A stretch of 64,000 nt of DNA, taken from NCBI GenBank assembly GCA_902792865.1, contig CADBBJ010000019.1:2012-66011 (forward strand). Direction: 5' to 3'. This DNA is from Candidatus Ruminimicrobiellum tauri. GTDB lineage: Bacteria; Elusimicrobiota; Endomicrobiia; Endomicrobiales; Endomicrobiaceae. Positions 1,268 through 42,598 of this stretch are shown here, piece by piece. The first letter of the stretch is position 1, and every line of letters begins with the position of its first letter. The translations under genes and the position numbers were made by a program. The notes below the pieces were generated by a model, which was not told the origin of the DNA, did no database searches, and was given only the letters and a program-made list of their open reading frames with translations.

Positions 1268-4200
1268 TTGGTTTCAATTCTTGCTGAAAGAAATTTGTAT
1301 GGTTTAAAAAAATTTCTTGATAGTAATGTTGTACATGCAGACTCCGGAAAGAGTGAGTTTTACTTCTATAAAAATTATTTTTTTAAACTTGAAAAAAATT
1401 TTTCTAAATTTCGTTTTACGGCACATGAATATGATGTTTATAATAAAATAAAAGAGAATGCAAATTTAAAGAATAATATCAACAAATATTATGGTTATTT
1501 TGATAAAGAAATTAATGGTGTAAAAAATAGAATTATTGTTAGCAAAAATTTACAAGAAGGCAAATTTATAGATTTATATGATTTTTTTTACAAGAAAAAC
1601 AAAAAGTTGTCAAAGGAAAAATGTGCCGATATCATAAAAAAAATAATTGCCATACAATCTGTTTTAAAAAACGAAAAAGGATTGTATAATTTTGATTTAA
1701 AACTACGAAACATAATGATAGATGAAGATCTTAATATAAAACTTATAGATTATGAGGGTATAGCACCTAAAGATAGTACCGTTTTTATGATCTCAGCTGA
1801 ATTACTTTTTAGCGAGATTTTCTTGGTGAATGAAGAGCTAAAATCTGATCTTTTAGATTATATACAATTTGATTTTATAATAAAATTGTTGAGTATGAAT
1901 GCTGGTACAAATATGAAAGAAGATGCTCGTAATTTATTATTGAGTCAGGGACAAAAGTTAGAAAGTCAAATAAACTACTTTAATAAATTTAAAAAATTTC
2001 GTAAAAATCATACTAACTATTTTAAACAAAACTTAGGTTTGAATGAAGCCTGGTTTGACAAAATAGAAAATATAATAAATACCGGTATAGAGCTTTCACA
2101 AAAAAGAAAATTTAATAACATTGTTTTAGTGGATGACAAAGAAAATAAAGAACTAAATAGTAAACTTTTACGAGAAAAATCTAATAGTATTTATATTATG
2201 AAAGATATTTTTATTAATGAACAAAATAAACTTGTGGAACGGGCTAATTATAAGTTTATTGAAAAGAGAAAAGAAGGAGATTATTTTAGATCAACAAGTT
2301 GGTATTATAATAGTGGTAGCTTTGCACTTAAATATGAGAGTAGTTTAGCAAACTTTATGTCAGAAATGCAGAAAAAAGGAACCGTTCTTCAAAAAATAGT
2401 AGATGAAGTTATTCCGATTGATGAGTCTAGTATATTTCAAAAAATTATATTGGGAACATTAATAGTAAAATTTATTAACACCGAAATAACAAAAGAAGGT
2501 TCATCTGTAAAATTTGAATCGTTATACAGTATATTGATTAAAGAGTCTAATATTGAACAATATTTCGGTAAAAAAGCATTTAAACAAGTTTTTATGCAAA
2601 TAATTGAAGCTGATAAGACTTTATTAGATTCCTTTTTTGATTTCAAAGAAGAATGTGAATTAATACAATTGGACAATGACAAATTTAAGTTAAAGTTTAA
2701 AGGTTCAAACTTAGAGCTTGATTTAGAAAAAGCAGAGGCAGACAATCTAATAAAGAAATTTCATCTTACCGAAGCAGATATACAAAAAAAATATACCAAC
2801 CCTGAAAGTGAAAACCAAAAGCCAAAGATTAATTCTAAAAACCCGATTGAAACAATAGCATTTAAACAAATAGGGGGAAATTATGAAAACTTCTTTGCAA
2901 TACAAATACCTGTTATAAGAGGTAAAGATAAAAAAATTCTAACGGATAAGAAAGGTAACAATATAAAACTTAAGTTAAATGTTGTTTATACAAAAGATAG
3001 TGGTGTTAGTTATCAGTTTATAGGGCAAAGTGAACAGATAGTAGAAACCTTGAAAAAAGAAGGTAAATTAACAGAAGATTTAAGCGAACTGAAATCGTTA
3101 GCAGATCTTTTATTTATAGACAGATATTGTACGGATAATATTGTAAGAGCAAAAATAGAAGGCGGAACAATTTTAACACAAGAACAAAAAAAGGCACTAT
3201 CCGATTATGTAAAAAGAGATAAAGACAATGAGTATTCTTATTTTAATGATAAGTTGATGGAAAAGGGAAGATATACATTTGCGGAAATAGAAGAGCTCTT
3301 GGCAGACACACCGAGCAGAACAAATACTTATGTGGGAGTAAAAGATGTAGAATTAAAGGTTACAAAAAATTTAGTGGAAGAGAATAAGATAGAACAAGAG
3401 ATACAAAGACTTAAAAGAGCGGGAATACACAAAGTGGTATTGTTAAAAGATAATATTTCTGATGAAGCATTGTGTTCAACGGTAATAAAAATAAGAAAAT
3501 TAGGATTACAACCGATAATAGGAATAACGGGAAATATGTTATCCGAAGAAAAGTCAACAGTTTATGATTTCATAGAAATAAGTAGCCGATTAAAGTCATT
3601 AGCAGGCTTTAGATTTATGGTTGATATAAATGATAATGTAAAAAATTTATTACAAGGAAAAGCCGACGATAAAGAGAGTATATTAGAATTAATTAAGAAA
3701 AGCGGAAAAGAAATATCCTATAAACCAAGTAATTTTGACAACCAGCAGGAGATGGAAAAAGCAGATAAATTATTTGAAGGAAAAGTTATATTTGTGGTAG
3801 AAGGGAAACAAATTATCAAAGACGAAACCGGAAAAGGAATAGAGTTCAAAAATGAAGATGTTTCCAATATTATTTCAAAGTTAGCGGGAGAAGGAAGATT
3901 TAGCTTATATTTTGATATGGATAAAGAAGATAATTTAAAGATGGCAAAGGAACTGGTAGAGAAAATATTCGGGAAAGGAGCGGAAGCAACTAAAACGATG
4001 ATATCGTTGGGAACAACATTTACGGCAAATATGTTTGCAGAATTATTTAAAAAGGATGCACCGACAAAATGTTTCAGTAATGCTTATGAACTGGGATATG
4101 GAACGGTATTTGGGGAAGTTTCACCGGAGAAAGTGGCAGGAGCATTCAAGGAATTGTTAACCGGTAGTATGACATATAGTAAGTTTAAGGAGTATATGGA

Positions 4201-4771
4201 CAAAAATAAAAATGAAGCTTTTACGGAGAACTTTAAAAATTTTGCTATAGGAGAAATAGAAGCCGAAATAAAAAAAGACGATAAACTTAAAGATGATGAC
4301 AAAACAGCAATGTTAAGACAGTATGTGATGGGATTTTTGATATCGTATATTGAAGATAAATTTAATGATTTTTATGAAACAAAAGGAGATATAAGACAAA
4401 TAGATATAAATGTAAAAAAACAAATAATGTATAGAATAATATGTTTATTACTGTCAGGTATTAATCCTACAACAATAAAGGTAAAGCTAAAGGAAGCTTT
4501 AAAGAAAAATACAAATAATCAATCACTGAAAGAATCAGTTAATAATACTAAAAAGAGTGATTTATTCGGCAAGATTTCAACAATGACGGCAAAATCGGAT
4601 AGTGTATTTGAGAGTGAGATGATTTATGCTAATGCAGATGCGGTTCCTGTAGATGTATACGACGATATAAATATATTGCTTGAAGACAGTTTAGTACCGA
4701 TAGCAGATATAGGTGAAACTGAAGAAGTTGATATGTTACAAGTTGTAAGGAGTATAGCTAAAAAGGCATAG
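1268..4771 (+). CDS. 1,167-aa giant-family paralog: protein-kinase-like domain plus conserved modules B, C and D of unknown function
   Basis: Long ORF collinear with the C-terminal ~1,300 aa of the 6267-14315 protein. Kinase-like motifs are FFKLEK, HEYDVYNKI, FDLKLRNIMID (D-x-K-x-x-N) and KLIDYEG. The frame is open from 1238, and the homologous sequence KKYFFSNLVSIL begins before the listed TTG, so the real start is uncertain. Confidence 0.8.
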   Translation: MVSILAERNLYGLKKFLDSNVVHADSGKSEFYFYKNYFFKLEKNFSKFRFTAHEYDVYNKIKENANLKNNINKYYGYFDKEINGVKNRIIVSKNLQEGKFIDLYDFFYKKNKKLSKEKCADIIKKIIAIQSVLKNEKGLYNFDLKLRNIMIDEDLNIKLIDYEGIAPKDSTVFMISAELLFSEIFLVNEELKSDLLDYIQFDFIIKLLSMNAGTNMKEDARNLLLSQGQKLESQINYFNKFKKFRKNHTNYFKQNLGLNEAWFDKIENIINTGIELSQKRKFNNIVLVDDKENKELNSKLLREKSNSIYIMKDIFINEQNKLVERANYKFIEKRKEGDYFRSTSWYYNSGSFALKYESSLANFMSEMQKKGTVLQKIVDEVIPIDESSIFQKIILGTLIVKFINTEITKEGSSVKFESLYSILIKESNIEQYFGKKAFKQVFMQIIEADKTLLDSFFDFKEECELIQLDNDKFKLKFKGSNLELDLEKAEADNLIKKFHLTEADIQKKYTNPESENQKPKINSKNPIETIAFKQIGGNYENFFAIQIPVIRGKDKKILTDKKGNNIKLKLNVVYTKDSGVSYQFIGQSEQIVETLKKEGKLTEDLSELKSLADLLFIDRYCTDNIVRAKIEGGTILTQEQKKALSDYVKRDKDNEYSYFNDKLMEKGRYTFAEIEELLADTPSRTNTYVGVKDVELKVTKNLVEENKIEQEIQRLKRAGIHKVVLLKDNISDEALCSTVIKIRKLGLQPIIGITGNMLSEEKSTVYDFIEISSRLKSLAGFRFMVDINDNVKNLLQGKADDKESILELIKKSGKEISYKPSNFDNQQEMEKADKLFEGKVIFVVEGKQIIKDETGKGIEFKNEDVSNIISKLAGEGRFSLYFDMDKEDNLKMAKELVEKIFGKGAEATKTMISLGTTFTANMFAELFKKDAPTKCFSNAYELGYGTVFGEVSPEKVAGAFKELLTGSMTYSKFKEYMDKNKNEAFTENFKNFAIGEIEAEIKKDDKLKDDDKTAMLRQYVMGFLISYIEDKFNDFYETKGDIRQIDINVKKQIMYRIICLLLSGINPTTIKVKLKEALKKNTNNQSLKESVNNTKKSDLFGKISTMTAKSDSVFESEMIYANADAVPVDVYDDINILLEDSLVPIADIGETEEVDMLQVVRSIAKKA

Positions 4772-4808
4772 TTTACATAAACGAAGCAAGGAACAAAAGA
4801 AATATGGC

Positions 4809-4846
4809 GGAGTGGGTACAACCAAACCCCTCCCCATATTTTTTTG
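4809..4846 (+). terminator. candidate rho-independent terminator after the 1,167-aa gene
   Basis: ggagtggg (4809-4816) pairs with cccctcc (4827-4833), with one bulged T and loop tacaaccaaa. A run of seven T (4839-4845) follows. Confidence 0.45.
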
Positions 4847-5177
4847 TCGTTTGTCATTGCCTTTGCCGTTCGTCATTCCGTGAAAATACGGAGTATTTTC
4901 GTGGCAATCCATCCGTTTTTGCCGTTGCCGTTGCCGTCTTTCCGTGGCAACTTGTTGCCGTGGCAATCCATAGCAAAATAAATCCGTTTTTCCTCTTTGT
5001 CGTTAAAGAACCCGGGCTTTTTCTTTTGAAGTGCGGTTTAGAGACGGCTTATGAGTGAACAATTTTTTAAACAAAAAACTACAAGAGCAAGTTTTTTCCT
5101 TATAGTAGTGATAAATAGTCTAAAAAACAAATAATTTGCTGTTCTGTCTTTTGTTTTTATTGTTGTTTTTTTATTTT

Positions 5178-5213
5178 CCATAGACTGCCACACCCTAACG
5201 GGTTCGCAGTGAC
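5178..5213 (+). repeat. P element copy 1 (ccatagactgccacaccctaacgggttcgcagtgac)
   Basis: Identical 36-mer found five times in the window, all in the same orientation. Confidence 0.95.
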
Positions 5214-5424
5214 AGCATTTATGTTACATAATTTTTTGTCATTCCCGAAAGCAGTAATCGGGAATCTATAGAAAAAACAAAAAATCCTATTTGTCATTCC
5301 CGCGGAGCAGTTGGGCGGCAATCCATAAAAAAAATAAATCCGTTTTCCTCTTTTTCGTCATTGCGAAAAAACACGAAGTGTTTTTGTGGCAATCCAGTCG
5401 TTGCCTTTGTTGTTGTTTATTATT

Positions 5425-5460
5425 CCATAGACTGCCACACCCTAACGGGTTCGCAGTGAC
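5425..5460 (+). repeat. P element copy 2
   Basis: Identical 36-mer. Confidence 0.95.
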
Positions 5461-5570
5461 ATCACATAGGAATGTTTTTTATCCGTTTTGTCTTTGTTGT
5501 TGTCGTTGTCGTTTGCCTTTGCCGTTTACCACTATATATTTAAAATTGTTTTTTGTATAATAATAGTATT

Positions 5571-6266: not shown

Positions 6267-9200
6267 ATGAATATGTGTAAAAACATATTTAACATGTTAG
6301 TGAAAAAAGAAACACTAAATCAATCATATTTAAAATTAAAAGATTGGCTGTTATCATTTAATTTGGTAAAGATAACAGCGGTAATAGTATTGAATTGTTT
6401 CTTGCTGACGGCAGTATACGGACAAGCGGTGGTAGGAGTATTGGAGAACCAAAGAGCAACGGAACAATTCAAACAAATATTTGAGGATTTTGATGTTCTG
6501 TACAATTACGGAAAAATATCATCAGCCAAATATAAGGGAAGTGATAAGGTAGTTATAAACATACAGGATTTGCATAACAATGCGGAAGTACAAAAGAATA
6601 TAAACAACATAATATCATTGTTTGACGAAAAGTACGGGGTAAATAACATATATTTGGTAGGAGCTTACGGACAGGTAAGTACAAAGTGGTTAACGGCACC
6701 CAAAGATAAAAAAATAAGAGAAAAAGTAATAGAAACATTATTGGAATCCGGGAAATTAACCGGAGCGGAATATTATTCTGCAGTGAAGAATAAAACGGAG
6801 ATAATAAAAGGGTTAGAAAAGAAAGAAGAATATTTTGACAACTTAAAAAGGTTTGAAAGTATAATAGAAAATTCGCCCGTAATAACAATGCATATAGAAG
6901 CAATAAAAGAAACGGTAAAGAAATTGCAGTCAAAATATTATAATAAGCAACAAAAAGAAATAGAAAAATTATCCCAAAAATATGAATTAGAGCAAATATC
7001 GGCAGACGAATATTTTGAAAAGATGGAAAAATATGCAAAAAATTATGCAATGAATATAGACAAATATAAAAATCTGTCCGGGTATATGGATTTAATGGAC
7101 AGAAAGAAAAATCTTGATTATGAAAAGATAAACAAAGAATTGCAGACTTTTGTAGCGACATTAAAAGAAAGAATACCGTACAATGTATATAAAGCATTGA
7201 CAGATGCGACAAAAAACTTTTTGGAGATAGACAAATTGTACGGCTATATAATAAGGTTATCCAAACAATACAATTTGGAGTTATCGGGTAATTTCAAAGA
7301 GTTAGAAAGATTTTTTGAATATATAGAGTTAAGCCAGACAATAAATCCGTTTGAATTAATGAAAGAAAAACAAAATTTTAAAGACGAACTAAACGACAAA
7401 TTTTCGGTAAACAAGGTAGAACAGGAAGTAATATTTTTAAGTAATTTTGTGGGATATTATGAAGATTATTTAACAGGGAAAATAACAGCCCCGAATTACG
7501 AATATTATAAATCCAACATAGAAAAATTTAAATATATATGGATAAAATACATAGATAACAGAGAAATAGTAGCATTAGAGAAGTACGAAAAGATATCGGA
7601 TGAATTCTATAAAATAAACATAGCGAGAAACAAGTATTTTATAGAAAATATGAAAGAAGTAATGGATGCAAAGAAACTGGGAGTGGAAGTAAAAGGAAAA
7701 GATGAAATACAAAAGAGCATGAACTCGTTAAAGAAATCCAAAGAGATATACATAACGGTAACGGGAGGCTTTCATACCCAAGAGATGTCTAAAATGTTAT
7801 CCAAAGCAGGGATAACAAACATAATAATAACCCCTAGTGTAACAACGGATACAAAAGAATCGGACGAGATACATTATAATTTAGCCAAAGAGCAGGCAAA
7901 AATAGCATTTCAGACATTGGCAACATTGCCACCATCACAGCAGGAAGTTCAAGAAAGAGTAAAAGAATTTTTGAGTGCTATACAAACAGCGGGATTACAA
8001 GATATAAAAGCAGAAGATTTGCAAGAAATCATTGATGAAGTTCTTGACCGAATAAATGTTGATCGTCGGAAAAATAATGAGGCTAATGTATCGGTAACCA
8101 TAAATTCCGTTACCGGTGCAGAAGTAACGGTAGGTGATAAAACTTATGAAGTTAAAGCTGATAACAACCAACAGAAAGTTAATAAAGAAAACAACTTATA
8201 CAAATCAAAAAGTGTATTAGGTTTAATGAAAGTGTCAATAGCAATGTCAATACTAACTTTGATGCTTATACCGATATCAGGTGTAACAGGAAGTTTTCCT
8301 ATAGTACCGATAATATTATTTGGTCTGTCATTTGGAAAAGACGGATTTGAATGGAAACAGTATTCTTTATTGAACGAAGGTGCACAAAAGATAAGTTCTG
8401 ATGCAGAAATAAAAAGTAACATAGCAGAATCTCAAAGTGCATTCTCTGACGATAACGATTCAAAAGAACTAAAAAACAGGATAAATAAAAAATTTGCGGA
8501 TTTAGGATTTGAAGAGAGCAATATAAAAAATATAGAGATAGGTGATTTTACCGAAAAAAATGAAATGAAAAAGGATGAATTTGCCAATGTTGATGTTCGT
8601 AAGCAAAGATTAAAAACAGGTTTTTTACATATCAATTACAGATTAATACAAAAAATATTTATGGACGGGACAAACTTTAAAAATGATATTTGGAACGATG
8701 TATATTTTTCAATGTTTATAGCCCATGAATTAAGACATAGAAATCATCCGAGATGGCATGAAGTTGCAGTAAGTTTTTTTGATATATTTTATTTTATAAC
8801 GGTATTTGTAAGAGAGTTAAAAAAAAGGATAAGAGAGTTAATAAAAAGAATGTTTGTTAAAAAAGAAGAAAAAGAAGTAGAAGAAATAATCGCAAAAGAA
8901 TTAAAGGAATGGCAGTCTTCACTAAAGAACTTAAAACAAAAATATAACTCAAAATCAATAAATGATAACGGAGAAATAAAAGACAATGACTTGAAAGTAG
9001 CAACGGAAAGAAAAACAGTCCGTTCCAATGCAATGCAAGCCGGCAGTTTACAAAATACATTAGCAGTTAGTAATGCTCAATCTGCAAACAAGACTAACAA
9101 CAATGAAAAAGAAGTAAAACCTGTAATAATTGAAACTAATCCTTTGACTGAAACAATAATAGATGAATTTGATAATAAAAAGATAGTAAGTTCCAAATAT

Positions 9201-12200
9201 GAACAGAACGAAAATGGGATGAGAAATATTATAATTTATTTTAAAGACGGTGATGTAGAGAAGAGTGTTAAACTTTTAACCAAAGACCAAAATCTAATAA
9301 AACCTGAAGATAATACGAATATATCGGTGGCTGATTGGATAATTAGTAAAACAGCATATTTAGAAACAAAAATTAATTTTAATTCCGACCGAACAGATAT
9401 AATAAATTATAAAAAAGAATTGACTTCACTTAACGGTGCAAAAATATCGGGTATTGAATATGATAAAAATAATAATAGAATTATAATTTATCATAGAAAA
9501 GAAAAGTCTCATATCAAAATGGCTTACTTCTCTCTTTTTAAAGCTCTTACATCCGAACAAAAATCAAATTTGGAAAGTCTTAATAACAGTGATAATATAA
9601 TCGGAAATAATTTGGTTGATTGGATACATAAAAATAAAGATATTTATGGAATAAGGATAGAAGAGAACGGTATACGAAGTTTAACGGAATTGGCAGAACT
9701 TGTCGGAGATGCAAAAATAAAAAATATTGAATGTTATAGAGAAGACAAAACCAAGAAAATTAAGATTGAGATTTCTTATGTTAAAGAACAAGACGGACTG
9801 CCACAAGTTGTTATTTTTTACGGTCCCACGGATAAAGAAGGCAAGGAATTTGAAAAATTGAAAAAATATAATGTAGATTTACCTAAAAAGCCTGATATAG
9901 GCAGACCGATAGTTTCTTGGATACTCGGTAACCGAAAATCTTTAAAAATAGATATAGAAAAGATAGATGAAATTCGGATAACAGGTAAAAATAAACTTGA
10001 TAGTTTTATTAATCTTAGCGGAAAGTCAAATATAGAAGGTATAGAATATTATCAGGATAATAATGAGAAAAAGATTATAGCTTATTACAAAGAAAAAAAT
10101 ACTGCAACCGGAAATAAACGGATAAAAGGTGTTGTTTTTTCTGTTTCCAAAGATCTTACGGCAGAACAAAAAGCAAAATTGTATACGGAAACAAAAAATA
10201 TAAATTCGTTAAGTGATTTGATAACAAATATCATGATAAATTATGGAATAAAATTAAAAAAACAATTGAAAATAAACCGACATGGACAAATTTTTACATT
10301 TAAAAACAATAAGGTAAACAAAACAAATTATGATATTTCTTATCAAAATATTAAGTTGTTATCAATAAAAGATAACAAAATTACTATTGAAAATCCCGAT
10401 AAAATAAAAAATGTTTATTTAAATTTAGAAACCGAAGATATGGCATATTATTATGATGATAGAATACAGGATTTTTATAACAAGAATTCAAAATCTTTAA
10501 AAAATTTTATAACAGAGAACGATATTGATACAACCGATTTTTTCATTAGAGTTGCATTAAATAAGGCGATTTTAGATTTTGTAAATGAGGATATAGAAAA
10601 TGTGATTGTATTATCTGACAAAAATAAAGGAAAACTAAAGGAATATTTCTTTTCTAATTTGATTTCTATACTTGATAAAGGAAATACAAATAATTTTATA
10701 AAGAATTTTAGTAAGATTGATTATAAACAACAAAAGTTAAGAAATCCGTTTTATACCTACAATAATTATTTTTTTAAATTCAGCAATAATATAAAAGAAT
10801 TCAGGCTTTTAAAAAATGAATATGATTTTTATAATAAAATAAAAGGAGATAAAGAATTAAATAAAAAAACAGGAAAAAATATTAATGAATATTATGGTTG
10901 TTTTGATAAAGAAATTAATAATAAAAAATATAAATTTGTTGTTAGTAAAAATTTAACAAAAGATAACAGATTTGAGAGTTTAGATAAATCTGTTAAGAAT
11001 AATAATTTTACAAAGAAACAATGTACTGAAATTATAAAACAAGTATTAAAAATACACTCTGATTTAGAAGAAAAGGGATTGTACAATTATGATTTAAACC
11101 CGCAAAGCATAATGATAGATAAAGATCTTAACATAAAACTTATAGATTGTGATGGTATTGTACCCAAAGACTGTACCGGTTTTGTATCTTCATATATATT
11201 ACCTTATGATTATTTCTTGGCGGATGAAAATCTTCGTTCCTATTGGTATGATTATGTAAAATTTACTTTTGTGGTAAATGTTTTTTTTGATATAAAAAAT
11301 CTTGATAAACAGATGGCAACAGACTTCAAAAGACTGCAATACATAATTGACTATATGGAAAAAAATAAAAATAAATTTGCAAGACGAAAAAACAGAAGAA
11401 CATTGGCTCGGTATGGTCGGTATCTTAGAATATTTAGTGAAATTTCCGATAAATATGCTAACTTTTTTGAACAATTTAAGCTTGATAAAACCCGTTTAGA
11501 TAAAATAAAAGATATAGTAAAAACAAGTGTAACTCTTTTTCTGCATCCGGATGAGAGTTATAACAAAATTTCTATATTGGAACTACAAGAAATAGACAGT
11601 AATCTTTTAATGGAAAAAGAAAAAGATTCTGTTTATGTAATCAAAAATATTGTTATTGATAAATCAAATAAATTAGTGAGAGTATATAACGATAAATTTA
11701 TTAAAAAAAGAGAAAAAGGAGATTGGGTTAAACCGGATAGTTGGTATTATAATTTAGATTCAAAAAAGATTGTATTCTATCCGATTTTATATAAATTTAC
11801 GGAATATGTACAGAAGTATGGAACCATTCTTCAAAAAATAGTAGACGAATCTATTCCGATTGATGATACTGATATATTTCAAAAATTAGTATTGGGAACA
11901 TTAATAAAAAATTTTATTGATGAAAATACGGATAGCAATATTAAAGATGACAACAAACAAAATGAATTTTTATACAAAAAATTGAAGACCGCCGGTAATA
12001 TTAAAAAATATTTCGGTAAAGATGCATTTAAAAAAGTTTTTATGCAAATAATAGAAGCAGATTCGGAATTATTAAAATCCTTTTTTAATTTCAACGAAGA
12101 ATGTAAGTTAATAAAAGACAAAAAGGATGATAAAAAATTTTATCTGAATTTTAGTTCAGGATTAAAACTTGAGTTAAGTAACAAAGATTTGAATAAAATA

Positions 12201-14315
12201 ACAGATAAATTTCCTAAAGTTAAAGTAGATGAAATTCCCAAAGAAAAAGAAAATATACCGCCATCTCCGCCGAAATCAGTAAAAACAGAGAAACAAATTA
12301 AAACAGATTCTCATAAAGTTGAAGATAAATACATGAAAGTATATCAAAAGATAAAATTCGTTAGTCCTATTGAAAATATTAAGTTTAGTCAGATAAGCGA
12401 AAATTATCAAAAACTGTTTGCAATACAAATACCTGTTGTAAGAGATAAATACGGTAAAATTCTTACGGATGATAAAAACAACAAGATAAAACTTAAATTA
12501 AATGTTGTTTATACAAAGGAAAACGGTATTAGCTATTATTTTACAGGGCAAAGTGAAGGAACGGTAAAACAATTAATAAGGAACGGTAAACTATCGGAAG
12601 ATTTAAAAGAACTGAAACCGTTAGTTGATCTTTTGTTTATAGACAGATATTCTGCGGATAAGAATTTAAGAGAAGAAATAGAAAACAAAAATCTTTTATG
12701 GAAAGAACAGATAAAAGCACTGTCTGATTATGCAAAAAAAGATGAAGATATGAATTATTATGAGTTTAAATGTAAGTTGATAGGACAGGGTTACACATTT
12801 ACCGAAATAGAACAAATATTGTCAGATATTCCCGGCAGAACAAATACTTATGTCGGATTAAAGGATGTAGAATTAAAACTCACAAATCAGTTATTGGATG
12901 AGAGTAAGATAATAAGAGAGATACAAAGACTTAAAAGAGCAGGAATACACAAAGTGGTATTGCTGAAAGATAAAGATGTTTCAAATAAAGAGTTGTATAT
13001 AATAATAGAAATAATAAGAAAATCAGGTTTACAGCCGATAATAGGATTGACAAGAGAAATGTTGTCCGTTAGTGCGGATGAAAAGTCAAAAGTCTATGAC
13101 TTTATAGAAGAAAGTATAAAAATTAAAGCATTATCAGGATTTAGATTTATGTTTGATATTGACGAAAAAGTGGGTAAACTTTTAAATTATAAAAAAGATA
13201 TTTATGAAATGATTAGCATATTGGATTTAATAATGAATATCGGGAAAGAAATATCTTATAAGCCAAGTAATTTTAATAATGAAAAAATAGATATTGCAGA
13301 TGAATTATTTAAAGGAAAAGTTATATATGTAGTAGCCGGAAAACAGTTTACAAGAAATAACGAAGAAGATTTGGTTATCAATAGAACTGAAGAAAATTCT
13401 CTTAAGAAATTAGCGGGAGAAGGAAGACTTAGTTTATATTTTGATATTGATAAAGATAATTTAAAGGTAGCGAAAGCACTGATAGAGAGAATATTTGGAA
13501 AAGGAACGGATGCAATCAAAACGATGATATCGTTGGGAACAACATTTACGGCAAATATGTTTGCAGGATTATTTAAAAAAGATTCTGCATCAAAGGGTTT
13601 TAGTAATGCTTATGAAATCGGATATGAACCGATATTTGGGGATATTTCCCCGGATATAGTTGCAGTAGTATTCAAGGATGTATTAACCGATAATATGAAC
13701 TTTAATGAGTTTTTAGAGTATGAACAAAGAGAGAAAGAACAAAAATCTAAAAAAACTATAGCTTTTACAAAAGAATTTGATAAACTTGTTATTGAAGATA
13801 TAAAAGAAGTAAGCAAATATAATATTTCAGAGAAAGAACAAACAGCAATGTTAAAGCAATATGTAATAGGATTTTTAATGTCATATATTGAAACTCATTT
13901 TGATGAGTTGTATGAAGTAAAACGATCGGATAAAATGATAGATATAAAACAAATGGATATAAATGTAAGGAATCAAATAATGTATAGGATATTACTTTTA
14001 TTACTGAAAGAGATGATTTTTAACAATATAAAACAATATGTAAGTATTAAAGATAGTCAAAAAGAAGGTTCAATGAAACAATCGGTTAATAATATCAAAA
14101 ATAACGAGTTATCCGTAAATATTTCAAAAATGTTAATGAAAACAAATATAAATATTAATAGTGTGCTTAAAAACAATATAGATACGATAGCTATATGTAA
14201 TGATATAAATGTGTTACTTGAATACAGTTTATTACCGGTAACTACAAACGAATTATCAAAAACAGGAAATTTAATAAAAGATATTAAAAATATAGTAAGA
14301 AAAGCATCTTATTAA
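6267..14315 (+). CDS. 2,682-aa giant multidomain membrane-anchored protein (possible ChaN/Tiki-like domain, TM pair, HExxH, ~105-aa repeats, degenerate kinase-like domain, modules B/C/D)
   Basis: Uninterrupted 8,049-nt ORF preceded by aagggga. It has an N-terminal hydrophobic anchor (ITAVIVLNCFLLTAVYG) and an HELRH motif at 8724-8738. The kinase-like motif is YDLNPQSIMID...KLIDCDG at 11088-11156. The C-terminal half is collinear with ORFs 3-1247 plus 1268-4771. Confidence 0.9.
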   Translation: MNMCKNIFNMLVKKETLNQSYLKLKDWLLSFNLVKITAVIVLNCFLLTAVYGQAVVGVLENQRATEQFKQIFEDFDVLYNYGKISSAKYKGSDKVVINIQDLHNNAEVQKNINNIISLFDEKYGVNNIYLVGAYGQVSTKWLTAPKDKKIREKVIETLLESGKLTGAEYYSAVKNKTEIIKGLEKKEEYFDNLKRFESIIENSPVITMHIEAIKETVKKLQSKYYNKQQKEIEKLSQKYELEQISADEYFEKMEKYAKNYAMNIDKYKNLSGYMDLMDRKKNLDYEKINKELQTFVATLKERIPYNVYKALTDATKNFLEIDKLYGYIIRLSKQYNLELSGNFKELERFFEYIELSQTINPFELMKEKQNFKDELNDKFSVNKVEQEVIFLSNFVGYYEDYLTGKITAPNYEYYKSNIEKFKYIWIKYIDNREIVALEKYEKISDEFYKINIARNKYFIENMKEVMDAKKLGVEVKGKDEIQKSMNSLKKSKEIYITVTGGFHTQEMSKMLSKAGITNIIITPSVTTDTKESDEIHYNLAKEQAKIAFQTLATLPPSQQEVQERVKEFLSAIQTAGLQDIKAEDLQEIIDEVLDRINVDRRKNNEANVSVTINSVTGAEVTVGDKTYEVKADNNQQKVNKENNLYKSKSVLGLMKVSIAMSILTLMLIPISGVTGSFPIVPIILFGLSFGKDGFEWKQYSLLNEGAQKISSDAEIKSNIAESQSAFSDDNDSKELKNRINKKFADLGFEESNIKNIEIGDFTEKNEMKKDEFANVDVRKQRLKTGFLHINYRLIQKIFMDGTNFKNDIWNDVYFSMFIAHELRHRNHPRWHEVAVSFFDIFYFITVFVRELKKRIRELIKRMFVKKEEKEVEEIIAKELKEWQSSLKNLKQKYNSKSINDNGEIKDNDLKVATERKTVRSNAMQAGSLQNTLAVSNAQSANKTNNNEKEVKPVIIETNPLTETIIDEFDNKKIVSSKYEQNENGMRNIIIYFKDGDVEKSVKLLTKDQNLIKPEDNTNISVADWIISKTAYLETKINFNSDRTDIINYKKELTSLNGAKISGIEYDKNNNRIIIYHRKEKSHIKMAYFSLFKALTSEQKSNLESLNNSDNIIGNNLVDWIHKNKDIYGIRIEENGIRSLTELAELVGDAKIKNIECYREDKTKKIKIEISYVKEQDGLPQVVIFYGPTDKEGKEFEKLKKYNVDLPKKPDIGRPIVSWILGNRKSLKIDIEKIDEIRITGKNKLDSFINLSGKSNIEGIEYYQDNNEKKIIAYYKEKNTATGNKRIKGVVFSVSKDLTAEQKAKLYTETKNINSLSDLITNIMINYGIKLKKQLKINRHGQIFTFKNNKVNKTNYDISYQNIKLLSIKDNKITIENPDKIKNVYLNLETEDMAYYYDDRIQDFYNKNSKSLKNFITENDIDTTDFFIRVALNKAILDFVNEDIENVIVLSDKNKGKLKEYFFSNLISILDKGNTNNFIKNFSKIDYKQQKLRNPFYTYNNYFFKFSNNIKEFRLLKNEYDFYNKIKGDKELNKKTGKNINEYYGCFDKEINNKKYKFVVSKNLTKDNRFESLDKSVKNNNFTKKQCTEIIKQVLKIHSDLEEKGLYNYDLNPQSIMIDKDLNIKLIDCDGIVPKDCTGFVSSYILPYDYFLADENLRSYWYDYVKFTFVVNVFFDIKNLDKQMATDFKRLQYIIDYMEKNKNKFARRKNRRTLARYGRYLRIFSEISDKYANFFEQFKLDKTRLDKIKDIVKTSVTLFLHPDESYNKISILELQEIDSNLLMEKEKDSVYVIKNIVIDKSNKLVRVYNDKFIKKREKGDWVKPDSWYYNLDSKKIVFYPILYKFTEYVQKYGTILQKIVDESIPIDDTDIFQKLVLGTLIKNFIDENTDSNIKDDNKQNEFLYKKLKTAGNIKKYFGKDAFKKVFMQIIEADSELLKSFFNFNEECKLIKDKKDDKKFYLNFSSGLKLELSNKDLNKITDKFPKVKVDEIPKEKENIPPSPPKSVKTEKQIKTDSHKVEDKYMKVYQKIKFVSPIENIKFSQISENYQKLFAIQIPVVRDKYGKILTDDKNNKIKLKLNVVYTKENGISYYFTGQSEGTVKQLIRNGKLSEDLKELKPLVDLLFIDRYSADKNLREEIENKNLLWKEQIKALSDYAKKDEDMNYYEFKCKLIGQGYTFTEIEQILSDIPGRTNTYVGLKDVELKLTNQLLDESKIIREIQRLKRAGIHKVVLLKDKDVSNKELYIIIEIIRKSGLQPIIGLTREMLSVSADEKSKVYDFIEESIKIKALSGFRFMFDIDEKVGKLLNYKKDIYEMISILDLIMNIGKEISYKPSNFNNEKIDIADELFKGKVIYVVAGKQFTRNNEEDLVINRTEENSLKKLAGEGRLSLYFDIDKDNLKVAKALIERIFGKGTDAIKTMISLGTTFTANMFAGLFKKDSASKGFSNAYEIGYEPIFGDISPDIVAVVFKDVLTDNMNFNEFLEYEQREKEQKSKKTIAFTKEFDKLVIEDIKEVSKYNISEKEQTAMLKQYVIGFLMSYIETHFDELYEVKRSDKMIDIKQMDINVRNQIMYRILLLLLKEMIFNNIKQYVSIKDSQKEGSMKQSVNNIKNNELSVNISKMLMKTNININSVLKNNIDTIAICNDINVLLEYSLLPVTTNELSKTGNLIKDIKNIVRKASY

Positions 14316-14830
14316 CAGATTAAAGTCTATCATATTCGCCATTCGCCATCTGCCGTTTGCCGTTGCCGTTGCCGTCTTTCCGTGGCAACTTGTTGCCGTG
14401 GCAATCCATCCGCTTTTTGTCATTGCGAAAAAACACGAAGTGTTTTTGTGGCAATCCAGCCGTTTTTGCCGTTGCCTTTTGCCTTTGCCGTTCGTCATTC
14501 CGTGAAAATACGGAGTATTTTCGTGGCAATCCATAAAAAAAATCCGTTTTCCACTTTTTTGTCATTGCGAGACCGAAGGTCGTGGCAATCCAGCCGTTTT
14601 TGTCGTTTAGTTGTTGTTTTTGTCGTTGCCTTTTGCCGTTGTCGTTTTTTATTTTCCATAGACTGCCACACCCTAACGGGTTCGCAGTGACGGCACATAG
14701 GATTGTTTTTCATCCGTTTTGTCTTTTGCCGTTGCCGTTCATTACCCTAATGTTCTTCCTAAAAGTCCAATATGTATTGAACCTCTACATCTTCTTGACA
14801 AAAAAAGTATAATGTTATACAATCATAAGG
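14316..14830 (+). repeat. mosaic intergenic repeat island B (4 hairpin units, 1 P element, GCCGTT spacers)
   Basis: Hairpin units lie at 14374-14408, 14419-14458, 14494-14533 and 14561-14592, and the P element at 14656-14691. Three hairpin units are identical in sequence to units of island A. Confidence 0.9.
14656..14691 (+). repeat. P element copy 3
   Basis: Identical 36-mer. Confidence 0.95.
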
Positions 14831-14839
14831 GTAGTTTTT

Positions 14840-15827: not shown

Positions 15828-15992
15828 TAACAAGTTGATTTGATTAAAGAAGTCGTCCCGACTCACCTTCACCTTATTTTTAGGGAAAAGGTTTTTGTAA
15901 TTTTAAATAGATTGTATTTTTATAGGGACGGGTATCTTTATCCGTTCTATTTTTTTATTTTTTGTAGGTGAAAATCCTACGAGGGGGATTGT

Positions 15993-25434: not shown

Positions 25435-26985
25435 ATGAAACAGATTAAAATATTTGATACGACTTTAAGAGATGGCAGTCAGGGGGCAGGTATATCGTTT
25501 TCGGTTGAAGATAAATTGAAAATAGCATCTGCCCTTGATACCTTTGGTATAGCATATATTGAAGGCGGTTGGCCAGGTTCTAATCCGAAAGATGAAGAAT
25601 TTTTTAAACTTGCAAAAAATAAATTTAAAAATTCTAAACTTGTGGCATTTAGTTCAACAAGAAAACCGAACACAAAAATTCAAGATGATAATCAAATAAA
25701 AAAAATAATTTCTTCAGATACAAAAGTTGCAACAATTTTTGGGAAATCTTGGGATTTACATGTACAGGTTGCACTTAAAACAACTCTTAAAGAAAATCTT
25801 AAAATGATATTTGAAACAATAGCATATTTGAAAACAAAAAAATTTGAAGTTATATATGATGCGGAACACTATTTTGACGGATACATTCATAATAAAATTT
25901 ATACTTTTGAAACAATAAAATCGGCAGTAGATGCCGGTGCGGATTATATTTGTTTGTGTGAGACTAACGGTGGAGTTTTACCGTCATATATAGAAAAAAC
26001 AGTTAAAGAAACAATTAAAGAGTTTCCTAATGTAAAGTTTGGTATTCATGCACATAACGATTGTGATTGTGCCGTGGCAAATTCAATAATTGCGGTTCAA
26101 TCAGGGTGTCAACTTGTTCAGGGTACAATAAACGGTATAGGTGAAAGGTGCGGAAATGCAAATTTGTGTTCTATTATCCCGTCACTGCAACTAAAAGGGA
26201 AATATCATTGTGTTCCCGTACAAAATTTAAAAAATATCACAAATCTTTCCAGATATATTGATGAAATAGCAAATTTGACTTCCAATGACAGTATGCCTTA
26301 TGTCGGTAAAAATGCTTTTTCGCATAAAGCGGGAGTGCATGTTTCGGCAATAAAAAAAGATTCTAAGACTTATGAACATATAAATCCTAAACATGTCGGA
26401 AACAAAAGAAATATTTTAGTAAGCGATTTGTCGGGAAAAAGCAACATAGTTTCAAAAGCAGATGAACTTGCAATAGATTTAGAAAAAGATGTACAAGGTA
26501 TAATTAATATAGTTAAAGAAAAAGAAAATAACGGTTATCAATACGAAAATGCAGACGGTTCGTTTTATATTCTTACAAAAAAGCTGGAAAAAACATATAA
26601 AAATTTTTTTACATTGAAAAATTATAGAGTTAGTGTAGAAAAAAACAAAGACGGTTCTATTGTATCGGAAGCAACCGTTAAACTTGATGTTAACGGAAAA
26701 GAAGAACATACCGTTGCAGAAGGCGGTGGTCCTGTTGATGCATTAGATAAATGTTTAAGAAAAGCACTAATAAAATTCTATCCGGAGATAAAATCCGTTA
26801 TACTTACGGATTTTAAAGTAAGAGTTATTAATTCAGATGCGAATACGGCAGCAAAAGTTAGGGTTCTAATAGAATCTAAAGATAAAAAATATAGTTGGGG
26901 TACAATAGGGGTTAGTGATAATATTATAGATGCCTGTTGGCAAGCTCTTTCGGATTCTGTTGAGTATAAACTTTTAAAAAAATAA
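25435..26985 (+). CDS. cimA: (R)-citramalate synthase / 2-isopropylmalate synthase family enzyme
   Basis: IFDTTLRDGSQGAGISFSVEDKLKIASALDTFGIAYIEGGWPGSNPKDEEFF is the CimA-type N-terminus. The protein is 516 aa with a LeuA-dimer-like C-terminus. Confidence 0.75.
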   Translation: MKQIKIFDTTLRDGSQGAGISFSVEDKLKIASALDTFGIAYIEGGWPGSNPKDEEFFKLAKNKFKNSKLVAFSSTRKPNTKIQDDNQIKKIISSDTKVATIFGKSWDLHVQVALKTTLKENLKMIFETIAYLKTKKFEVIYDAEHYFDGYIHNKIYTFETIKSAVDAGADYICLCETNGGVLPSYIEKTVKETIKEFPNVKFGIHAHNDCDCAVANSIIAVQSGCQLVQGTINGIGERCGNANLCSIIPSLQLKGKYHCVPVQNLKNITNLSRYIDEIANLTSNDSMPYVGKNAFSHKAGVHVSAIKKDSKTYEHINPKHVGNKRNILVSDLSGKSNIVSKADELAIDLEKDVQGIINIVKEKENNGYQYENADGSFYILTKKLEKTYKNFFTLKNYRVSVEKNKDGSIVSEATVKLDVNGKEEHTVAEGGGPVDALDKCLRKALIKFYPEIKSVILTDFKVRVINSDANTAAKVRVLIESKDKKYSWGTIGVSDNIIDACWQALSDSVEYKLLKK

Positions 26986-27022
26986 CAGGTGTTGAGTATA
27001 AACTTTTAAAAAAATAACAGGT
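26959..27022 (+). repeat. perfect 32-bp tandem duplication spanning the cimA stop codon
   Basis: gttgagtataaacttttaaaaaaataacaggt occurs at 26959-26990 and again at 26991-27022. Confidence 0.95.
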
Positions 27023-39171: not shown

Positions 39172-39329
39172 ATATTAAAATATATAAAAAATCAATTTTG
39201 CCGTTCGCCGTTGCCGTTTGTTGTTTCCTTTGCCGTCATTGAGAAAATACGGAGTATTTTTGTGGTAATCCGGTCGTTGCCTTTTCTGTTGTTGCCGTTT
39301 CGTCTTTGTAGTTGTTGTTTTTTATTTTT

Positions 39330-39365
39330 CCATAGACTGCCACACCCTAACGGGTTCGCAGTGAC
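39330..39365 (+). repeat. P element copy 4
   Basis: Identical 36-mer. Confidence 0.95.
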
Positions 39366-39562
39366 AGCACCCCTGATTGTTTTTCATCCGTTTTGTCTTT
39401 GTCTTTTGCCGTTGTCGTTCCGCCGTTCGTCGTCTTTCCGTGAAAAAATTTTGATTTTTTCGTGGCAATCCATAAAAAAATAAATCCGTTTTCCACTTTT
39501 TTGTCATTCCGTGACCGAAGGTCGTGGCAATCCAGTCGTTGCCTTTGTTGTTGTTTATTATT

Positions 39563-39598
39563 CCATAGACTGCCACACCCTAACGGGTTCGCAGTGAC
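39563..39598 (+). repeat. P element copy 5
   Basis: Identical 36-mer. Confidence 0.95.
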
Positions 39599-40152
39599 AG
39601 CATCCTGATTGTTTTTCATCCGTTTTGTCTTTGTTGTTGCCGTTGCCGTTATCGTTGCTGTCTTTCCGTGAAATTTCTGCGAATTTTCACGGAAAGACAT
39701 AAAAAATAAATCCGTTTTCCTATTTGTCGTTAGAGAACCCGGGCTTTTTCTTTTGAAGTGCGATTTAGAGACGGCTTATGAGTGAACAATTTTTTAAACA
39801 AAAAACTACAAGAACAAGCTTTTTCCGAAGGGCAATGTGTCTTTGTTTGAGCTTTTTTCGTTACAATATGTCGTTAGAAAAAAGCGAGTTGGCCTTTGGT
39901 TTAAAAAATTGGAACGAAAATAGAATGTACTTATAGTAGTGATAAATGGTCTAAAAAACAAATAATTCGCCGTTTTGTCTTTGCCGTTGCCGTTGTCTTT
40001 TGCCGTCTTTGCGAGGCAACTTGTTGCCGTGGCAATCCATAAAAAAATAAATCCGTTTTCCTGTTTGTCGTTAGAGAACCCGGGAAATTTTCTTTGAAGT
40101 GAGTTTTAGAGACAGTATATGAACGAAGTATTTTTTAGAGTACAAATATAAA

Positions 40153-41754
40153 TTAAAAATTGATAAGCAAATTTTTATATTTTGTTTCCAAATCTTTATC
40201 TTTTAATTCTTTTGCAATTAAAATAAGTTTTTCACAAATCTCTTTTGATTTAAATTCTTTATCAAATGAATTTATAAAACATTCTTTTGCTTTTTGATAG
40301 TTTTTATCATAGAAATAATATTCACCTAACAGAAACCATTTATCAGGCTTTATTGCAGTTATTCCTGATGTTTCAGGATATTTTAATTTTAATGCTAATT
40401 GGCAAAATTTCTCGTACCTGTCAAATCTTTTATCATAATCATTATTAACCGATTTCCAATATAAATGATGATCCGATTTTGTTATTGAAAATTTTTCCGG
40501 ATTGTTTCTTACATAAGTACACTTCTCCAATGTAAAGAAAGATTGACTTGCCAGAATAGAGTTTACATAAGGTCTTGCCTTAACTAAAAATTTCAATGTT
40601 TCATGAAAATCTTCATCTGTTTCTGTCGGAAAGCCACACATCATATTTATTTGAAATGAAATTCCTGCTTCTTTTGTATTTTTAAACAGTTCAATTGCTT
40701 TTGGAATTTTAAACTTTTTATTCATGGAATCTAAAACTTTTTGTGAACTGGACTCTACTCCATAACCAACCAAACCGCAACCGGCTTGTTTCATTTTTTT
40801 TAGTAGTTTTAGTGTCATATCATCTCTGACAACCGCTTGCCCTGCCCAAGAAATTCTAATGTCGTTTGATATTATTAAATCACAAAATTCTTCAAGATTT
40901 TTTAAATTTCCGTTTAACAATAATCCGTTAAAGTAAAAATAATTTATTTGTGCAAAATCAGTAATGTGTTTCTTTATCTGTTCAAATAATCTTCCGGCAG
41001 ACATTGTTCTGTATTTTGGCCAAAATAATCTTTCATAACAGAAATGACAAGCATTGATACAACCTCTTGAATCCAGTAAATCAAGCCTGTTAGTTTGTTC
41101 GTATTTGTTATTTAAAATATCATCTTTAAAATCCATATAATCGGGAATTGGTAAAGAGTCTAAATCTTTTACCGTTTCACTTTGTCCGCAATCAATAACT
41201 TCACCGTCTTTTTCCATTAAAAAGCCTTCGCATTTCGGCAGGTTATTTATATCAAAGTTTTCTTTTAATTTTTCTAAAAGATTTTTTAGGGGAATATCCG
41301 CTTCACCGTAACAAACATAATCTATAAAATTTTGTTTTGCAAAATCATAAGCCATTTGAGTTTTTGCAGCTTTATGACCTAAGAAAATTATTATGGAATT
41401 TTTTTTTGATTCTTTTATTTTTTGTGCTATGGCATAACTTATGTTTACGGACGGAGTATGTGTATCAAATATAAAAACATTTGCATCGGTAGCTAAAATG
41501 GCGGTTATGGATTTTTGTGCATTTGAAACTTTTAATATTGTATCCGTAAAAGTATTGTTTTCCCAAACAGAATAAAAGTCTCTGTTTGTCCAATACTTTT
41601 TGTTTTCTTCGTTTGCCTGATGATAAAAAATATTATTTAAATCAAAACAAAAAGTTTCATGCCCTAAACTTTTTAAATATGTTGAAAAATAGGCAAGTAT
41701 ATAAGGAGGACAATATCTTACCCACCAGGGACATTTTATTAAGGCAACTTTCAT
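40153..41754 (-). CDS. B12-binding-domain radical SAM protein (class B-like) with a TPR-like C-terminal tail
   Basis: N-terminal Rossmann-like B12-binding region. The CxxxCxxC motif is in SRGCINACHFCYE. Later motifs GLVGYGVESSSQKVL and FPTETDEDF; 533 aa. Confidence 0.8.
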   Translation of the reverse strand: MKVALIKCPWWVRYCPPYILAYFSTYLKSLGHETFCFDLNNIFYHQANEENKKYWTNRDFYSVWENNTFTDTILKVSNAQKSITAILATDANVFIFDTHTPSVNISYAIAQKIKESKKNSIIIFLGHKAAKTQMAYDFAKQNFIDYVCYGEADIPLKNLLEKLKENFDINNLPKCEGFLMEKDGEVIDCGQSETVKDLDSLPIPDYMDFKDDILNNKYEQTNRLDLLDSRGCINACHFCYERLFWPKYRTMSAGRLFEQIKKHITDFAQINYFYFNGLLLNGNLKNLEEFCDLIISNDIRISWAGQAVVRDDMTLKLLKKMKQAGCGLVGYGVESSSQKVLDSMNKKFKIPKAIELFKNTKEAGISFQINMMCGFPTETDEDFHETLKFLVKARPYVNSILASQSFFTLEKCTYVRNNPEKFSITKSDHHLYWKSVNNDYDKRFDRYEKFCQLALKLKYPETSGITAIKPDKWFLLGEYYFYDKNYQKAKECFINSFDKEFKSKEICEKLILIAKELKDKDLETKYKNLLINF

Positions 41755-41756
41755 TG

Positions 41757-42598
41757 TTACCTTTCCTCATCCACTATCCACTTATATTCATCGCAGGGAC
41801 AAGTTTCCGCTTCGCAAGGCATTGGTTTATCATGTAATCTGAAATTTTTGTCCGTAAATATGTTTCCGATAGGTTTATGGCTTAAAGGTCCGCATCTTGT
41901 AACCGTTCCGTCTGCTTTAATTGAAGCATATATATGACCCGCTCTACACAACAATTTACCTTTGGTTTTTTGACCTTCAAGATGATATTTTAATCTGTCA
42001 ACATCTCCCATATAAGGTTTCATCATTTCTCTTTCTTCATCCGTATATGCCTGAGGATAAGTTTTTCCGCAATATTCACCATGAAAAGCAGCTAATGCCA
42101 TAACAATACCATGGCTTTTAAATATATCGTCATAATATTTTATTTATCCATGTTTGGCGGATAAGCTAAATAGCAAACTCCGCCTTTGAAACCGTATTTA
42201 TATAAATATAAAACTTTTCTGATAAAAGGTTCTATTTTTGTTTCCAACGGATGAAAATTCATATCAAGTCTTACTCTTTCGGGGTTTAGTTGCTTTGCAA
42301 AGGTAAACATATCTCCCGATAATTGACAGGTAACTTTTACCGTATGCTTTTTTGAAATAACTTCTACCAAATCTGTAAATCTCGGATATAAAGTCGGTTC
42401 TCCGCCGGTAATCATTAAATCGCATTCACCATATAAGTCGTACATCCTGTCCCAAATTTCTACCATTTTTTCAAAAGGCGGATATACATTATGTTTATCC
42501 ATTTCGTCCCAAACTTTATCAAACCAGCAATAAGGACATCTGAAATTACATCTGTAATGAGAATCCCATACAAAACTAACTTTTTGTTTTTGTTGCAT
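41757..42598 (-). pseudogene. radical SAM protein with a Cys-rich (SPASM/twitch-like) C-terminus, split into 152-aa and 114-aa ORFs by a 1-nt frameshift
   Basis: The N-terminal ORF (42140-42598) carries CNFRCPYCW and GGEPTLYP. The C-terminal ORF frame is open from 42143 and reads IKYYDDIFKSHGIVMALAAFHGEYCG...CRAGH...RCG...CEAETCPC. The two frames abut at gataaataaaat (minus strand, 42137-42148). Restoring one A would fuse them into about 279 aa. Confidence 0.6.

Follow-up and report, generated by a model that had tools for sequence, protein, structure and literature searches.

Among the short repeats of bacterial genomes, the closest described relatives of the elements reported here are the repetitive extragenic palindromes (REPs) that carry a CGTC tag (Di Nocera, De Gregorio and Rocco 2013, BMC Genomics 14:522; PMC3733652). 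As far as the text and supplements of that study describe them, its consensus figure aside, these REPs have an unpaired tag (CGTC, with the variants TGTC and CCTC), followed in families 1-4 by a continuous stem of 8-9 bp that starts with A-T, a loop of 4-5 nt and a CCA tail. They are mostly located after open reading frames (ORFs), occur in five phyla and form dimers that are mainly head-to-head, head-to-tail dimers being negligible. The Neisseria repeat dRS3, a CGTC-1 repeat, and RPE-4 and RPE-6 of Rickettsia belong to them. They "apparently lack a dedicated transposase", and many REPs are suggested there to act as RNA. The stretch analysed here, 64,000 nt of contig CADBBJ010000019.1 of Candidatus Ruminimicrobiellum tauri (hereafter the window; 29.9% GC), holds 19 tagged hairpin units, which are restricted to three long intergenic regions, A, B and C. 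The CGTC-tagged, REP-like class is known; new is the bipartite form of these units, in which a near-invariant frame surrounds a freely varying inner stem.

Each unit starts at its 5' end with an unpaired (C/T)GTC tag. An outer stem of 5 bp (ATTGC/GCAAT) follows, then a junction made of a G/G mismatch, one A-T pair and a G bulged on the 3' arm, and then an inner stem-loop that varies in sequence and length (inner stem of 3-11 bp, loop mostly of 3 nt). The tail reads CCAT or CCAG in the 14 units on the + strand (type I) and CTAT in the five on the - strand (type II). The flanks of the cores are conserved, as an initial annotation of this DNA had described, but they pair with each other and thus belong to the hairpin. 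The extra unpaired base that it had reported on the 3' arm of most units was also recovered, as a bulged G or C. Type II has the frame variant ACTGC/GCAGT, a compensated double change of the outer stem from T-A to C-G. Four window units have TTT for ATT, by which the first outer-stem pair is lost. Some units have a different left frame, ATT-CCGTG, which pairs one base out of register with the unchanged right frame, resulting in a bulged C and tandem G.T/T.G pairs. The cores AAAATAC, GCAAC and ACC are each found with both left frames, and the intermediate left frames GCGTG and CCGAG were not seen among the window units. Constrained are the frame of about 21 nt, the presence of a hairpin and the cGNAg loop on one strand; the sequence and the length of the inner stem are free.

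The frame recurs in the window far above chance. Its right half, GTGGCARTC, has 16 matches for 0.31 expected, a number reached by none of 100 shuffles, and its left half, GTCWYTSCG, has 19 matches for 0.78 expected, which no shuffle reached either. The enrichment amounts to 25- to 50-fold, and almost all matches of both halves lie in regions A, B and C. A generic scan for GTC followed by a 5-bp flush stem gave no enrichment in the window (62 matches versus about 72 in shuffles), so that the family is defined by its specific frame alone. A unit is present at all 14 positions listed in the initial annotation; the five - strand units, with their ACTGC/GCAGT frame, had escaped it. The common frame that it had ascribed to all 14 is found in most of them, but unit 5238 lacks gcaatcc, unit 39660 is a palindrome of the left frame, unit 5293 barely folds and unit 39235 is degenerate. 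The cores do differ from each other, as it had stated; because of three exact duplicate pairs (Table 1), they represent about six distinct inner stems and not 14 independent ones.

Conservation of the stem was determined from 145 distinct units of many genomes, aligned by their frames only and with the middle padded with N, which makes the alignment blind to structure. In this alignment, 88.3% of the cells are paired, versus 71.5% in shuffles, and none of 500 shuffles reached the observed value. Double-change cells number 304 versus 114, and the covariation score is 0.19 versus 0.045. Slid-register controls had 22-57% of their cells paired. At least five Watson-Crick pairs are found in 46% of the distinct cores and in 8% of the shuffled ones. 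The cores co-vary so that the stem is kept, in agreement with the initial annotation, which had recognised them as self-complementary and the variation as compensatory. Single units fold with modest energies (z -0.6 to -2.8); what rules out chance is recurrence and covariation, not thermodynamics. At one orthologous site in two metagenome-assembled genomes of Desulfovibrionaceae, the frame is intact and the core differs in sequence and length, in flanks that are 81-86% identical.

A search for such units in other phyla had been proposed, and exact-pattern scans found them there: with at least 120 loci in viral contigs and at least 120 in GTDB species genomes (about 8 matches expected by chance in the latter, estimated from the pattern length and the size of the collection), an identical frame was recovered from more than 15 bacterial phyla as well as from phage contigs. 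This and all further counts from other genomes are among the matches listed. The hosts include Alpha-, Beta-, Gamma- and Deltaproteobacteria, Campylobacterota, Bacteroidota, Clostridia, Chloroflexota, Planctomycetota, Nitrospirota, Spirochaetota, Melainabacteria, Rickettsiales, several CPR lineages and Ratteibacteria, with genome GC contents of 25-70%. Hundreds of different self-complementary cores are enclosed by the frame. Its left part is GCGAG in 150 of the 150 exact matches outside the window genome; GTC is preceded by T in 79 and by C in 59 of these units, and the tail is CCA-like, with A after CC in about 46%. One contig, L045 (IMGVR_UViG_3300022660_000530), is a genuine tailed-phage contig with portal, terminase and C5 methylase genes. 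It carries 17 units between 2670 and 12782, grouped head-to-tail into five clusters in which about 10 nt separate the units; all have the same orientation, antisense to the genes.

The distribution is patchy. The frame was absent from 5,426 E. coli genomes, and it is rare in the plasmid (6 records) and cultured-phage (3 records) collections, where it is annotated in none. Close relatives contributed about 77 kb free of units, which covers the PheS and radical-SAM neighbourhoods and, for the relative with an 88% identical radical-SAM protein, the 3' flank of this orthologous gene. The type II element had no match in the genome-contig collection, and no record of the window's RsfS was found. A metagenome scan for the CCGTG frame (TTCCGTG...CGTGGCAATCC), a pattern too short for that collection, gave matches that are nearly all chance, a single one having a GTCA tag. 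Between genes, units elsewhere occupy 38 convergent and 15 divergent sites, and most adjoin ordinary housekeeping genes, as in region C. Neighbouring units in the genome loci are arranged tail-to-tail in 37 cases, head-to-tail in 19 and head-to-head in 15.

The hairpin is asymmetric between the strands. The strand that bears the tag folds better than its complement for 17 of the 19 window units and for 239 of 267 units elsewhere. The 70 apical triloops include 40 of the GNA type and not a single one of the complementary TNC type, and C-G pairs close 56 of the 70. The loops in the window are cGAAg, cGGAg and, in type II, cGTTAg. A subtype common in loci L001-L240, GAG-GA-[stem]-GA-CG, has tandem G.A/A.G mismatches (GGAGC...GCGAC) between frame and inner stem, which would be C.T mismatches on the complementary strand. 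The strand asymmetry that the initial annotation had proposed is upheld, on different evidence (the more stable tag strand and the triloops). Its own argument was that the ccgtg...cgtgg units pair as G.T/T.G on the + strand. This pairing exists, but the wobble-paired CCGTG frame is one left-frame variant, restricted to this lineage. In the variable cores, G.T mismatches are not in excess of A.C mismatches (17:10 and 12:16), and region B as a whole (14330-14700) folds better on the - strand (z -3.8, versus -1.3 on the +).

The loops recall the DNA mini-hairpins d(GCGNAGC) and d(GCGNNAGC) of the Hirao group (PMC13037366). Loops of the cGNAg type are exceptionally stable in DNA and far less so in RNA: d(GCGAAGC) melts at 76.5 C and d(GCGTTAGC) at 69.5 C, while r(GCGAAAGC) melts at 39 C and a pyrimidine-loop variant, d(GCTTTTGC), at about 33 C. 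The minimal member of the present family contains GCGAAGC, and GNA triloops with C-G closure are shared, as is cGTTAg in type II. The mini-hairpins differ in being a structural motif of phage and plasmid single-strand origins and of N4 promoters, not a dispersed repeat family.

These strand and loop asymmetries, together with a random orientation relative to genes, no match in Rfam and no U-tract, are the grounds on which the units are best read as DNA repeats in which the tag strand, when single-stranded, folds into a hairpin, an action as RNA being less likely. The initial annotation had argued for selection on something other than coding or double-stranded DNA; coding is indeed excluded, whereas the elements are best seen as DNA repeats. 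More specifically, we consider it probable, with reservations given below, that they form a bipartite variant within the CGTC-tagged REP-like superfamily of extragenic palindromic DNA repeats, and that they act as strand-specific single-stranded DNA hairpins. In line with the published description, as far as it was available for comparison, the tag is unpaired (window units start with cGTC or tGTC), the stem starts with A-T (ATTGC/GCAAT or ACTGC/GCAGT, the four TTT units excepted) and a short unpaired tail resembles CCA. The units are extragenic, mostly behind ORFs in unidirectional or convergent arrangement, and patchy across phyla. Also shared are the lack of a linked dedicated transposase and the mosaic clustering known from Neisseria. 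Classic CGTC-1 units coexist with bipartite ones in the window (5238), in the Tisiphia locus L151 and in locus L229. The bipartite units are found in more than 15 phyla as well as in phages, a wider host range than the five phyla published. In the text and supplements of PMC3733652 (consensus figure aside), neither the bipartite frame nor its peptide read-outs are mentioned, and a literature search with unit sequence strings returned primers only.

Other described systems share parts of this pattern. The GTAG REPs and REPINs, mobilised by RAYT (Y1 HUH) transposases, are likewise short extragenic hairpins with an unpaired 5' tetranucleotide and covarying stems, presumably acted on as single-stranded DNA, as proposed here; the tag is CGTC here and not GTAG. 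An arrangement in REPIN-type inverted doublets was rejected, as none of 63 inverted neighbours share a core (among direct neighbours, 10 of 41 do). Small dispersed repeats of cyanobacteria (Elhai et al. 2008) are reportedly very short and possibly nested in conserved hairpin flanks; they are a lead only.

By analogy with RAYTs and GTAG REPs, a trans-acting enzyme would recognise a hairpin extruded from single-stranded DNA by its tag and its foot. With such a reader, a constraint on the frame and on the existence of a hairpin, as observed, would be expected. The tag-bearing strand would be the folding strand, with apical cGNAg or cGNNAg mini-hairpins of DNA. In this Endomicrobiaceae genome, spread or homogenisation of the units is recent, and they have accumulated at gene 3' ends in three mosaic regions, with lineage-specific TTGCCG arrays and a linker, much like the intergenic mosaic elements of Neisseria (NIMEs), which are built around dRS3. 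Effects at the RNA level, such as 3'-UTR (untranslated region) hairpins formed on read-through, would be a by-product. CGTC-tagged repeats are among the most widespread short bacterial repeats, and the bipartite variant, in which constrained and free positions are cleanly parted, gives phylogenetic-profile searches for the missing enzyme a precise query and biochemistry a defined substrate.

Several observations weigh against this interpretation as CGTC-tagged DNA repeats. The published stem is continuous over 8-9 bp, while the units are bipartite with the sole exception of 5238; their loops are mostly of 3 nt instead of 4-5 nt; and tail-to-tail neighbours outnumber head-to-tail and these head-to-head ones, where head-to-head dimers are described. 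No transposase or other protein family linked to the units was found near them, and we infer their mobility. All the loci retrieved yielded no pair of an empty and a filled site. Selection on a + strand transcript could account as well for the strict orientation in the window (type I all on +, type II all on -) and for the wobble pairs of the CCGTG frame, and common descent could be a partial source of the shared GNA loops.

The search for a linked enzyme covered the surroundings of the units elsewhere. No protein family recurs within 1.5 kb of them. A Pfam scan of the 150 nearest neighbours returned only phage structural and housekeeping genes, with at most 2 members per family, and no RAYT-like (Y1 transposase) gene is present among these neighbours or among the clustered ORFs. 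Small GIY-YIG (YhbQ-like) genes were considered as candidates and rejected, with one weak match in 18,102 ORF segments.

A bolder form of the DNA interpretation is doubtful in our view. According to it, the ATTGCGAG...CGYGGCAATCC units would be an undescribed and active class of single-stranded DNA hairpins, pan-bacterial and phage-borne, whose tag and asymmetric foot are read by a trans-acting enzyme or by a host replication or repair enzyme. Hairpin-templated synthesis would generate the hypervariable core, and neighbouring units would be kept from sharing one so that long inverted repeats do not form. An element of that class could serve as a single-strand initiation or pausing signal.

An alternative, close to what the initial annotation had concluded, is that a strand-specific structured RNA is selected: the units would be 3'-UTR hairpins of the upstream + strand genes, with a role in protecting transcripts from 3' exonucleases or in cis-regulation. 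All 14 type I units are indeed co-oriented with the upstream genes and start 59-100 nt after stop codons, the better folding of the tag strand and the G.U pairing of the CCGTG frame suit a transcript, the covariation would be expected of an RNA as well, and Di Nocera et al. propose RNA action for many REPs, to the extent covered by the text of that study. Orientation argues in the opposite direction. The initial annotation had named equal numbers of both orientations as evidence against a transcribed element, and family-wide they are nearly equal: between co-directional genes, 27 units are sense and 25 antisense, and with a looser pattern the numbers are 36 and 29 by units (15:13 by loci). Furthermore, five of the 19 window units lie on the other strand, and all 17 units of L045 are antisense to the phage genes. 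No Rfam family matches the units even at E<=5, tRNAs alone reaching the gathering score in the window. In the tag orientation, the hairpin is followed by CCAT and an A-run, the cGNAg triloops are a stability motif of DNA, region B folds better on the - strand, and the G.T pairs are confined to one frame variant. An RNA is consequently considered unlikely as the object of selection.

The arrangement of the units invites a further explanation at the level of double-stranded DNA. In the window, they form head-to-tail runs and tail-to-tail pairs, with up to five units in a row, alternating with hexamer arrays and with the linker AAATCCGTTTTCC, which comes after the CCAT tail and A-run in six copies (4980, 5336, 14540, 39482, 39708 and 40049). 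Modules of 64-125 nt are shared among regions A, B and C. Units of A and B are 100% identical, while the paralogous genes beside these regions are 75-82% identical, and a 64-nt module of linker plus unit has 94% identity between B and C, whose flanking genes are unrelated. This difference between the units and the flanking genes indicates that the repeats spread or were homogenised later than the gene duplication. Processes at the DNA level are visible in the palindromised left frame at 39660-39698, in the identical units of different regions and in the 94% module, and they speak for the reading as DNA repeats preferred above.

The NIMEs of Neisseria likewise consist of arrays of tagged 20-40-nt palindromes interleaved with other repeats beside variable large genes, although the modules differ (here TTGCCG arrays, the linker and a 125-nt repeat), as does the phylum. 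The units might be double-stranded binding sites or recombination substrates, with a site-specific recombinase, gyrase or a nucleoid protein as possible partners, and would then promote gene conversion among the neighbouring paralogous giant genes, as proposed for NIMEs and dRS3. Besides the NIME-like mosaic, the position of regions A and B directly 3' of paralogous mosaic genes, the nature of dRS3 as a CGTC-1 repeat and the retention of the frame whatever the GC content of the genome are compatible with such sites. They would need neither a self-complementary variable core nor the 40:0 loop asymmetry, and region C and most units elsewhere adjoin ordinary housekeeping genes, which renders this explanation rather improbable.

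Rho-independent terminators, suggested by hairpins at gene 3' ends and by the enrichment of convergent sites, are very improbable: a U-tract is missing in either reading (on the other strand, a T-run precedes the hairpin), terminator-like sites in the window are at shuffle level, and up to five units follow each other. Least credible of all are integron attC sites or a CRISPR-like array; the units recall attC in that their ends are conserved, their palindromic centre varies and one arm has extrahelical bases, but the ends here are GTCATT...AATCC instead of RYYYAAC/GTTRRRY, no cassette ORFs lie between the units, which are spaced by 45-75 nt, and for an array the spacing is irregular and the repeats themselves vary.

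Table 1. Repeat regions, hairpin units and interspersed modules in the window (z, folding score of the single unit).
Feature	Positions	Strand	Description
Region A	4772..5552	.	mosaic repeat region; 3' of 1167-aa ORF, 5' of 228-aa ORF
Unit 4872	4872..4910	+	CCGTG left frame, inner stem AAAATAC/GTATTTT, loop GGA; identical to 14494
Hexamer array	4919..4937	+	TTGCCG; runs into the tag of the next unit
Unit 4936	4936..4969	+	GTCTTT-CCGTG frame, inner stem GCAAC/GTTGC; identical to 14374
Linker	4980..4992	+	AAATCCGTTTTCC, first copy
Unit 5182	5182..5213	-	type II, reads gtcACTGCgAACCCgttaGGGTgtgGCAGTct
Unit 5238	5238..5266	+	classic CGTC-1-like, ATTCCCG/CGGGAAT, 11-nt loop, without gcaatcc frame
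Unit 5293	5293..5324	+	degenerate hybrid ATTCCCGC...GGCAATCC, folds poorly (z +0.07)
Unit 5357	5357..5395	+	GCGA frame, inner stem AAAAACAC/GTGTTTTT, loop GAA; identical to 14419
Unit 5429	5429..5460	-	type II, tail-to-tail with 5357, reads gtcACTGCgAACCCgttaGGGTgtgGCAGTct
Hexamer array	5488..5513	+	TTGTCG
Region B	14316..14839	.	mosaic repeat region; 3' of 2682-aa ORF, 5' of tRNA-Asp
Hexamer array	14351..14375	+	TGCCGT; runs into the tag of unit 14374
Unit 14374	14374..14407	+	identical to 4936
Unit 14419	14419..14457	+	identical to 5357
Hexamer array	14464..14489	+	TTTGCC/TTGCCG
Unit 14494	14494..14532	+	identical to 4872
Unit 14561	14561..14591	+	GCGAG frame, inner stem GACC/GGTC, loop GAA
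Unit 14660	14660..14691	-	type II, reads gtcACTGCgAACCCgttaGGGTgtgGCAGTct
Region C	39172..40152	.	mosaic repeat region; flanked by convergent rsfS and radical-SAM genes
Hexamer array	39198..39218	+	TTGCCG
Unit 39235	39235..39271	+	degenerate, AAAATAC core in GAG-type frame
Unit 39334	39334..39365	-	type II, reads gtcACTGCgAACCCgttaGGGTgtgGCAGTct
Unit 39432	39432..39471	+	CCGTG frame, inner stem AAAAAATT/ATTTTTT
Unit 39503	39503..39533	+	CCGTG frame, ACC/GGT core; core as in 14561, frame differs
Unit 39567	39567..39598	-	type II, reads gtcACTGCgAACCCgttaGGGTgtgGCAGTct
Hexamer array	39636..39658	+	GTTGCC
Unit 39660	39660..39698	.	perfect palindrome, left frame plus its own complement, tag included (z -8.7)
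Hexamer array	39981..39995	+	TTGCCG
Unit 40005	40005..40038	+	GTCTTT-GCGAG frame, GCAAC/GTTGC core; core as in 4936, frame differs

The largest of the shared modules is a 125-nt repeat at 4975-5099, 39702-39826 and 40043-40167 (68-91% identity). It starts with the linker and GTCGTT, and holds a CCCGGG palindrome and the short ORF start ATGAGTGAACAATTTTTTAAAC. Units also create spurious ORFs, and short-read assemblies are probably broken by them. ORFs of more than 100 aa at 14382-14690 (+) and 39347-39700 (-) are made wholly of repeats and are almost certainly spurious; ORFs made of repeats are found in L045 as well (2608-2895, 4651-5256 and 11360-12109).

The housekeeping genes of the window include pheST, infC, a leuA-like gene, hisG and rsfS. 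Its PheS has 84% identity to proteins assigned by NCBI to metagenome-assembled genomes of Endomicrobiaceae/Endomicrobiia, in keeping with an origin in Elusimicrobiota. Three ORFs, 39-1247 (402 aa), 1268-4771 (1167 aa) and 6267-14315 (2682 aa), are paralogous mosaics with shared modules of 62-83% nucleotide identity and weak protein-kinase/LanKC-like matches; regions A and B sit immediately 3' of the second and the third. A radical-SAM gene appears to be split into two ORFs on the - strand (41757-42101 and 42140-42598), where the relatives L365, L366 and L367 have a single ORF of 275-279 aa, and could be a pseudogene or contain a sequencing frameshift. Upstream of infC, a match to the ribosomal protein L20 leader (15841-15959) stays below threshold (41 bits, gathering score 58.7, E 1e-4). 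At the 3' end of the leuA-like ORF 25435-26985, 32 nt are perfectly duplicated in tandem (26958-27022). Finally, the OmpA-family ORF 27112-30051 contains an AATAGC/AATAGT hexamer array of up to 13.7 copies (29828-30041), which would encode an Asn/Ser-rich low-complexity tract.

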